DNA of 39,043 nucleotides from the sequence record AF547987; one strand, written 5' to 3'. A program made the translations under genes and the position numbers. Shown here piece after piece: positions 32,619 through 34,641 of this stretch; positions within the stretch are counted from its first letter, which is position 1, and each line of letters begins with the position of its first letter. A model generated the notes under the pieces. That model did no database searches. It saw only the letters and a list, made by a program, of their open reading frames with translations, and was not told the origin of the DNA. The DNA is from Shigella phage Sf6.

Positions 32619-32785
32619 TTGACCAAAATCGAAGTTACGAACAAGAAAGCGTCGAGCGAGCTTTAACGTGTGCTAACTGCGGTCAGAAGCTGCATGTGCT
32701 GGAAGTTCACGTGTGTGAGCACTGCTGCGCAGAACTGATGAGCGATCCGAATAGCTCGATGCACGAGGAAGAAGACGATGGCTAA
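32615..32785 (+). CDS. ninF: NinF protein
   Basis: 56-aa GTG-initiated ORF ([26 protein letters not shown]...), recognised as lambda NinF; not in the track. Confidence 0.7.
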
Positions 32786-32878
32786 ACCAGCGCGAAGACG
32801 ATGTAAAAACGATGAATGTCGGGAATGGTTTCACCCTGCATTCGCCAATCAGTGGTGGTGCTCTCCAGAGTGTGGAAC
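32778..32878 (+). pseudogene. ninG: ninG (rap) 5' fragment, truncated by IS insertion
   Basis: [34 protein letters not shown] then runs into the IS911 terminal repeat. Confidence 0.8.
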
Positions 32879-32886
32879 TGAAGTGG

Positions 32887-33726
32887 TCAACAAAAACTGG
32901 CCACCGAGTTAGAGTTTTTCCAGTATCGATTTTCCGATTCGTTTGGGGGTAACCCACCGTTATATTCGTGCGGTCTTAGTGCACTGTAATATCCAACGAT
33001 ATAGTCCGTTATGGCGTGAGCTGCCTCGCTGAAGCTTACGTAACCCACCACCGGCATCCATTCGTTCTTCAGACTCCTGAAGAAGCGTTCCATTGGGCTG
33101 TTATCCCAGCAGTTTCCGCGCCGGCTCATACTCTGTCTGATCTGGTATCGCCACAATAACTGCCGGAACTGCCTGCTCGTATAATGACTGCCCTGATCGC
33201 TGTGGAACATCACCCCGCCGGGCTTACCACGGGTTTCCCATGCCATTTCCAGCGCTTTCATGGTGAGCCTGCTGTCCGGCGAGAACGACATGGCCCAGCC
33301 CACTGGTTTTCTTGCGAACAGGTCGAGAACAACGGCGAGGTACGCCCAGCGCTTACCCGTCCAGATATAGGTCACATCACCGCACCACACCTGATTTGGC
33401 TCGGTCACGGCGAACTGCCTTTCAAGGTAGTTAGGGATAGCAACATGTTCATGACCACCACGTTTATACCGGTGAGTCGGCTGCTGACAGCTGACCAGCC
33501 CCAGCTCTTTCATGAGCCTGCCAGCAAGCCAGCGTCCCATCTGGTAGCCTCTCCGGGTTGCCATTGTGGCGATGCTTCTTGCTCCGGCCGAACCGTGGCT
33601 GATGCCATGTAGCTCAAGTACCTGACTGCGTAATACAGCCCGTCTGCCGTCTGGTTTTTCAGGACGGTTTTTCCAGTATCTGTAGCTGCTGCGATGAACC
33701 CCGAACACATGGCAGAGTGTGACCAC
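32887..33726 (-). CDS. IS911 OrfB (DDE transposase catalytic domain, expressed as OrfAB by -1 frameshift)
   Basis: 279-aa track ORF carrying the DDE catalytic region; its frame is open upstream to the slippery site in the -1 frame relative to orfA. Confidence 0.85.
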
Positions 33727-33752
33727 AGGATAATGCGCTCTGAGTTTCCCGA

Positions 33753-34091
33753 TTATCGAGAACTGTTCAGGGAGTCTGACATCAAGAGCGCGGTAGCCTT
33801 TTTTAATATTTCATTCTCCATTTCAATGCGTTGTAGCTTTTTCCTGAGCTCACGGATTTCAATTTGTTCCGGGGTAATGGGGGAGGCTTTTGGTGTTTTG
33901 CCCTGACGCTCATCACGCAGTTGTTTGACCCATCTTGTCATTGTGGAAAGGCCAACATCCATAGCTTTGGCGGCATCTGCCACCGTGTATTTCTGGTCAA
34001 CAACCAGTTGAGCGGATTCGCGTTTAAACTCTGCGCTAAAATTTCTTTTTTTCATTGGAGCACCTGTGTTGTTCTGAGGTGAGCATATCAC
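33753..34091 (-). CDS. IS911 OrfA (HTH transposase subunit)
   Basis: 112-aa ORF with HTH and leucine-zipper-like segment; ends just after the A-AAA-AAG slippery heptamer at about 33798-33804. Confidence 0.85.
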
Positions 34092-34127
34092 CTCTGTTCA
34101 GGTGGCCAAATTCAGTGTGCCACTTCA

Positions 34128-34641
34128 AACCAAGATAGCACTCGAACGACGAAGCAAAGAACGCGAAAAAGCGGAAAAGGCAGCAGAGAAGAAACGACGA
34201 CGAGAGGAGCAGAAACAGAAAGATAAACTTAAGATTCGAAAACTCGCCTTAAAGCCCCGCAGTTACTGGATTAAACAAGCCCAACAAGCCGTAAACGCCT
34301 TCATCAGAGAAAGAGACCGCGACTTACCATGTATCTCGTGCGGAACGCTCACGTCTGCTCAGTGGGATGCCGGGCATTACCGGACAACTGCTGCGGCGCC
34401 TCAACTCCGATTTGATGAACGCAATATTCACAAGCAATGCGTGGTGTGCAACCAGCACAAAAGCGGAAATCTCGTTCCGTATCGCGTCGAACTGATTAGC
34501 CGCATCGGGCAGGAAGCAGTAGACGAAATCGAATCAAACCATAACCGCCATCGCTGGACTGTCGAAGAGTGCAGGGCCATCAAGGCGGAGTATCAGCAGA
34601 AACTCAAAGACCTGCGAAACAGCAGAAGTGAGGCCGCATGA
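34128..34641 (+). pseudogene. ninG: ninG (rap) 3' fragment
   Basis: [16 protein letters not shown]... to the end of NinG; the track ORF 34102-34641 starts inside the IS end. Confidence 0.8.

Follow-up and report, generated by a model that had tools for sequence, protein, structure and literature searches.

A complete copy of IS911 interrupts the ninG gene of Shigella phage Sf6

Background

The insertion sequence (IS) IS911, a member of the IS3 group of the IS3 family studied by the laboratories of Chandler and Fayet, is present in multiple copies in Shigella chromosomes. In the transposition pathway described for it, a frameshifted OrfAB transposase binds terminal inverted repeats (IRs) of 36 bp, one end makes an asymmetric end-on-end attack on the other, and the resulting circle, with 3-4 bp of flanking DNA between its joined ends, goes on to integrate (PMC2909936). 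A copy of this element is examined here in the genome of Shigella phage Sf6 (sequence record AF547987), whose 39,043 nucleotides form the window analyzed. It lies in the nin region, where it splits ninG (gene 54).

The insertion is already known: it was published in 2004 along with the Sf6 genome, and a 2016 study analyzed how it is lost under selection. The relevant passages of Dover et al. 2016, which cite Casjens et al. 2004, describe an intact IS911 that disrupts nin gene 54 (PMC5630979). The same paper holds that S. flexneri 3a strain 3-19 is probably where the phage picked up the element, states that its transcription runs against that of the phage genes, and points out that active-looking transposable elements are rare in well-studied phage genomes, P1 being the sole other example named (PMC5630979). 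A second paper independently mentions IS911 in the Sf6 nin region. The element described below is the same object as the published gene 54::IS911 of AF547987, at the same coordinates and with no difference between them. That the window has the numbering of AF547987 is established by three Sf6 qPCR primers from PMC5630979, each of which matches the window exactly and at one place only, and by the published coordinates of holin mutations. As a discovery it carries little weight, having long been in print, but it is a textbook case of approximately 1.25 kb of dispensable DNA that affects the fitness of a headful-packaging phage.

The reading favored here, with a probability of roughly 0.96, is that a full-length and apparently functional IS911 from the S. 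flexneri chromosome transposed into the Sf6 prophage at codon 34 of ninG, a non-essential gene (encoding a rap-like endonuclease), and that the phage has carried it since.

Boundaries of the element and target duplication

The element, its ends and the duplicated target are placed in the window as follows.

32879..34127, minus strand: complete IS911 (IS3 family), 1249 bp, assigned from nucleotide matches and exact S. flexneri proteins
32879..32914, minus strand: right terminal inverted repeat (IRR), 36 bp, with ...CA at its tip, holding the TGA stop of orfB (32887-32889)
34092..34127, minus strand: left terminal inverted repeat (IRL), 36 bp, the transposase-proximal end
32876..32878, no strand: left copy of the target-site duplication, AAC, placed from the sequence and the empty site of phage Sf101
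34128..34130, no strand: right copy of the target-site duplication, AAC, placed from the same evidence

The element starts with TGAAGTGG and ends with CCACTTCA, and the TG...CA dinucleotides are present at its termini. Its terminal repeats are imperfect. A stretch of 27 nucleotides matching at 74% is the longest inverted pair of the region, and IRL and IRR are identical at 24 of their 36 positions. The marks of the IS3 family are all found, namely these ends with imperfect repeats in the family's range of about 20-40 bp, an orfA/orfB frameshift layout, a transposase with an rve DDE domain and a helix-turn-helix (HTH) domain, and a short target duplication. The element lies on the minus strand, opposite to both ninG and the early-right operon of the phage, an orientation left unstated in the initial annotation of this window.

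The uninterrupted ninG gene of Sf101 reads GTGTGGAACCAAGATAGC at the matching site, with one AAC only. Because this empty site carries a single AAC, the duplication in Sf6 is demonstrated rather than merely seen by inspection. The total inserted DNA amounts to 1252 bp, made up of the 1249-bp element and the 3-bp target duplication.

Insertion targeted by similarity to the inverted repeats was considered as an explanation for the choice of site and was rejected. The best words common to the target and the IS ends are 6 nucleotides long (CACACT and AGTGGT), and 1317 of 2000 shuffled targets do equally well.

The split ninG gene

Both halves of the interrupted gene can be recognized on the plus strand.

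32778..32878, plus strand: 5' fragment of ninG (Sf6 gene 54), 33 codons with four N-terminal cysteines; Pfam NinG positions 1-31, E = 3e-10
34131..34641, plus strand: 3' fragment of ninG, 169 codons and a stop (34639-34641), containing the Cys/His nuclease region; Pfam NinG positions 35-192, E = 2.6e-77

Together the two halves cover adjoining positions 1-31 and 35-192 of the 193-position PF05766 profile. The 5' fragment encodes a protein identical to the N-terminus of Sf101 NinG. Joining 32778-32878 to 34131-34641 restores a gene of 612 nucleotides, which has the same length as Sf101 ninG and is collinear with it. The two genes differ by 11 nucleotides and 3 amino acids, and the restored protein of 203 amino acids is 98.5% identical to its Sf101 counterpart. 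It resembles other members of the lambda NinG/Rap family (PF05766), which are intact in Sf101, SfI, HK544 and other phages. Unlike those intact genes, Sf6 ninG carries 1252 bp of inserted DNA after codon 33.

These results agree with the initial annotation on each point that it raised about the site. It had described an element of about 1.25 kb with terminal repeats and AAC at both ends, which proves to be 1249 bp at 32879-34127 with AAC on either side. It had named the interrupted gene as ninG, to whose Pfam family both fragments match, and had proposed that removal of the element and one AAC restores the gene, as the collinear 612-nucleotide open reading frame (ORF) confirms.

In the interrupted gene, the ORF that begins with the ATG at 32778 runs into the element and ends after 44 amino acids at a stop codon at 32910-32912. 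An in-frame GTG within IRL, at position 34102, opens a second ORF of 179 amino acids that spans IRL and the ninG tail. Inspection of the sequence ahead of this GTG shows no clear Shine-Dalgarno sequence. The interrupted NinG is most likely inactive, its head and tail being separated. For annotation, Sf6 ninG should be flagged as disrupted, and the IS should be recorded as a mobile element that is complete and uses a programmed frameshift.

Identity of the element and its closest relatives

By the convention used in ISfinder, two copies represent the same element when they share more than 90% identity in DNA or more than 95% identity in protein. The Sf6 element is matched across 80% or more of its length by 1,969 E. 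coli records. In the best of them the identity is 99.1% across the full 1249 bp, and RefSeq labels the product 'IS3-like element IS911 family transposase'. The top match in the phage collection is a copy in Shigella phage SfII, annotated as 'IS911 ORF A / ORF B', with 99.8% identity. The exact OrfA sequence occurs on 662 contigs, for example as 'IS911 ORF1 [Shigella flexneri]', and for the OrfAB sequence of 389 amino acids there are 24 contigs with an exact copy, named 'IS3-like element IS911 family transposase [Shigella flexneri]'. From this near-identity to annotated copies, combined with the exact S. flexneri proteins, it follows that the Sf6 element is IS911, and that it is the variant circulating among S. 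flexneri chromosomes. It shares with experimentally studied IS911 its ends, the 36-bp inverted repeats, an OrfA of 100 amino acids, the frameshift signals, a DDE transposase made as OrfAB and a 3-bp duplication. Copies in S. flexneri chromosomes encode proteins identical to those of the Sf6 copy and show no substantive difference from it.

A three-way alignment finds 11 differences between the Sf6 copy and typical E. coli copies, 10 of which fall within IS positions 246-312. Since so many of the differences are clustered, the Sf6 copy is classed as a Shigella-type variant. The cluster suggests a recombination patch between IS911 variants and not scattered drift. It occupies 67 bp at the 3' end of orfA, at about 33816-33882 of the window.

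The SfII copy (NC_021857, SfII_55/56; 39101-40350) likewise resides in the genome of a temperate Shigella phage. Its site is different from that in Sf6, with a hypothetical gene on one side and the Rz/Rz1 lysis genes on the other. The copy measures 1250 bp and has one extra G in orfB (CAGTTCCGGGCAG versus CAGTTCCGGCAG) that is absent from the Sf6 and E. coli copies. The extra G falls between the second aspartate and the glutamate of the catalytic triad and truncates orfB. The SfII 'ORF B' is annotated with only 627 nucleotides because this G shifts the orfB frame before the catalytic glutamate is reached. The SfII copy is probably inactive, judging by this truncation.

Transposase genes and frameshift signals

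The coding regions and the signals for their expression, all on the minus strand, are listed here.

33753..34055, minus strand: orfA, IS positions 73-375, 100 amino acids; HTH_Tnp_1 PF01527, E = 3.8e-14; DNA-binding regulator
32887..33810, minus strand: orfB frame (-1 relative to orfA), IS positions 318-1241, 307 open codons; rve PF00665, E = 3.6e-32
33798..33804, minus strand: A-AAA-AAG heptamer for -1 frameshifting, IS positions 324-330, in the X XXY YYZ register of orfA
33816..33819, minus strand: GGAG resembling a Shine-Dalgarno sequence, 11 nucleotides upstream of the heptamer; proposed upstream stimulator and ribosome-binding site for AUU-initiated OrfB
33735..33791, minus strand: predicted three-way-junction RNA structure directly 3' of the slippery site; frameshift stimulator

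A slip of -1 at the heptamer joins the two frames into an open OrfAB fusion of 389 amino acids. This protein scores 380.6 bits against the NCBIfam model NF033516, 'IS3 family transposase' (cut-off 160), and aligns with positions 1-368 of the 369 in the profile. Its catalytic triad is intact, consisting of D227, D287 and E323 with 59 and 35 residues between them. An ATT codon in the orfB frame is located at 33805-33807, upstream of the heptamer, and OrfB initiated from it would contain 306 amino acids.

The A_AA.A_AA.G sequence ranks among the most efficient frameshift motifs in E. coli, and the GGAG of IS911 has been mutated in a frameshift study that addresses its role as a stimulator (PMC4066793). 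The title of Rettberg et al. 1999, a paper cited in PMC4066793, refers to a three-way-junction stimulator in IS911. The Sf6 copy carries both of these IS911-type stimulators, the GGAG upstream and the three-way junction downstream. The 69 nucleotides downstream of the heptamer form, when folded, a closing stem and two hairpins at -21 kcal/mol (z = -2.87), and only 1 of 200 shuffled sequences folds as well. RefSeq marks a 'programmed frameshift' at the corresponding site in an E. coli copy that is 99.1% identical.

Competence of the Sf6 copy for transposition

Transposition of the element into ninG would have followed the steps known for IS911. Ribosomes translating orfA would slip by -1 at A-AAA-AAG, aided by the GGAG and the three-way junction, to produce the OrfAB DDE transposase. 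OrfAB would then synapse the two 36-bp repeats, and one 3' CA end would be joined to the same strand 3 nucleotides beyond the other end. Replication would convert this joined-end intermediate into an IS circle, and integration of the circle at cuts staggered by 3 bp would generate the AAC duplication. The pathway is established for IS911 generally, and we infer from the intact signals that it would also work in the Sf6 copy.

The initial annotation had judged the element to look transposition-competent, and this view is upheld as far as sequence can speak to it: the reading frames, frameshift signals, DDE triad and ends are all intact. Dover et al. 2016 also call the element intact (PMC5630979). 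The initial annotation had further noted orfA, orfB and an A-AAA-AAG site at about 33798-33804. The heptamer occurs at exactly these positions and in the correct register. Its identification of the element as IS911 is borne out by 99.1-99.8% identity to annotated copies and by the exact S. flexneri proteins, with both the ends and the transposase matching those of IS911 and the IS3 family.

Several observations weigh against the favored reading. A longer fold of 141 nucleotides around the slippery site is no better than its shuffled versions (z = -0.76), and an Rfam search of 32600-34700 at E values up to 1 returns no family, leaving the frameshift region unmatched. The predicted OrfAB has 389 amino acids versus the 382 quoted for the prototype (PMC2909936, which elsewhere gives 292). 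The OrfAB span that RefSeq assigns to E. coli and Shigella copies has the same 389 amino acids as that of Sf6. The identity values refer to annotated IS911 copies and not to the prototype record (ISfinder / X17613). The inactivity of NinG is itself a deduction, and the ORF of 179 amino acids that begins at the GTG in IRL remains open.

The alternative that survives best, though it is unlikely, holds that the element is an inactive relic, structurally complete and yet crippled by point mutations in its transposase, ends or frameshift signal. The apparent competence of the Sf6 copy is judged from its sequence. Near-identical copies that are inactive do exist, as illustrated by the SfII copy in which an extra G truncates orfB. 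However, the Sf6 copy does not have this G, encodes an open fusion of 389 amino acids that keeps D227, D287 and E323, and has complete terminal repeats at both ends. The recurrence of an identical OrfAB on 24 contigs and of an identical OrfA on 662 is what would be seen for a form that propagates.

Loss of the element and phage fitness

The insertion adds some 1.25 kb of DNA, with transcription directed against the early-right operon, to a genome that is packaged by the headful. Deletions of 1.2-4.0 kb that remove IS911 were selected in 10 of 10 evolved populations, and the mutants lyse their hosts faster (PMC5630979). IS-mediated deletions are inferred by Dover et al., who attribute most of them to 'auto-excision' (PMC5630979). 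This term is hard to square with a copy-out-paste-in pathway that retains the donor copy (PMC2909936).

The published deletion in isolate 2-3 (1245 bp, 32875-34119) has end points that correspond to a direct repeat of 6 bp, AGTGTG, present at 32869-32874 in ninG and at 34114-34119 in IRL. The position of these end points identifies it as a deletion by microhomology. The final 8 bp of IRL stay in place after it, and the ninG frame is not restored. For isolate 6-4, the listed size is 1239 bp, yet the coordinates given, 32876-34124, span 1249 bp. If these coordinates are right, ninG in this isolate would be in frame with one extra codon.

A strong hairpin resembling an intrinsic terminator is present at the upstream edge of the nin region, on the plus strand at 30345-30378. 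It has an 8-bp stem with 6 G-C pairs and is followed by TTTTATTT. The left-most published deletion starts at 30436, just past this hairpin, and all deletion mutants keep a predicted terminator (PMC5630979). The hairpin is consistent with the published statement that this terminator is retained. A scan of 30000-36500 for promoters and terminators finds no consensus promoter reading out of either end of the IS. On the plus strand within the element, the same scan finds only weak terminator-like hairpins, in numbers no greater than chance expectation.

It might be argued that the insertion has been co-opted by the phage and is kept by selection, either because antisense transcription delays lysis and enlarges the burst or because a truncated NinG is made from the GTG in IRL. 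Deletions that remove the IS shorten the lysis time and reduce burst size, transcription interference is among the hypotheses of Dover et al. (PMC5630979), and the in-frame ORF of 179 amino acids could supply the truncated protein. However, the timing of late-gene transcripts is unchanged in the deletion mutants, and greater terminal redundancy, one of the explanations offered for their phenotype, is an adequate alternative (PMC5630979). The ends of the element have no consensus outward promoter, and the GTG has no clear Shine-Dalgarno sequence ahead of it. The insertion is unique to Sf6 in all collections searched, which argues against selective maintenance. On balance, co-option is very improbable. 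The same small likelihood is given to a more elaborate proposal, in which IS911 would modify the life history of Sf6 through antisense transcription, transposase or truncated NinG, lengthening the latent period and enlarging the burst. The recurrent near-precise losses, such as those between AGTGTG repeats, would in that case let the phage change reversibly from slow-lysis to fast-lysis variants and back.

Occurrence of the junction in other genomes

The left ninG::IS911 junction is found in none of 5,426 complete E. coli genomes and is absent from IMG/VR, the species representatives of GTDB and the JGI metagenomes. No other phage record contains the right junction. In the phage collection, where the Sf6 record itself does not occur, coverage of 30000-37000 by any one record reaches at most 63%, and neither IS junction is spanned. 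The collections represent Shigella genomes poorly, such that wild Sf6-like prophages with the insertion may exist.

Hops of IS elements into cloned DNA are a known sequencing artefact, and the insertion could in principle have entered phage DNA during library propagation or assembly and be absent from virions. The lack of the junction in the E. coli genomes, IMG/VR, GTDB representatives, JGI metagenomes and other phages would fit such an origin. However, Illumina sequencing of ancestral Sf6 DNA taken straight from lysates revealed no difference from AF547987 (Dover et al. 2016, PMC5630979), and an origin during cloning is thereby excluded. Loss of the element was also tracked by polymerase chain reaction and restriction digests (PMC5630979). 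Furthermore, the copy is of the Shigella type, and the E. coli type differs from it at 10 clustered positions. An artefact therefore has almost no chance of being the explanation.

Equally negligible is the proposal that the element is another IS3-family member resembling IS911 (e.g. ISEc52, IS2, IS3 or IS600): TG...CA ends, the orfA/orfB layout and A6G frameshifting are common across the family and ISEc52-annotated copies occur among the weaker matches, but the full-length identity of 99.1-99.8% to IS911-annotated copies, the exact proteins named IS911 ORF1/ORF2 in Shigella and the published name of the Sf6 element effectively refute it.

Neighboring features

The nin region includes a gene for a Dam-like DNA N6-adenine methyltransferase at 31852-32439, in which a GAG codon of Sf101 gp48 is replaced by TAG at 32059 (stop 32059-32061). 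The gene is otherwise about 99% identical to that for Sf101 gp48 and is split into ORFs of 69 and 98 amino acids. Besides gene 54, Dover et al. mention one more nin gene that is nonfunctional, owing to a premature nonsense codon (PMC5630979), and the split methyltransferase gene is evidently the one meant.

Two transfer RNA (tRNA) genes, tRNA-Asn(GTT) at 36065-36139 and tRNA-Thr(TGT) at 36145-36220, are located upstream of the holin gene (36463). A near-consensus promoter, TTGACA-18-CATAAT, is found at 35980-36009, just upstream of both. Because the tRNAs lie between this promoter and the holin gene, they are placed at the start of the late operon.

With position 36463 as the start of the holin gene (gene 61), the published holin mutations, given in AF547987 coordinates, fit the window. 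All 12 of the mutated residues reported (K6, A23, A28, I46, A55, G66, L67, S69, N70, Y73, I82 and G88) fit the translation. Codon arithmetic places K6T at 36479 and Y73D at 36679, in agreement with the published positions (PMC5630979 Table 2).

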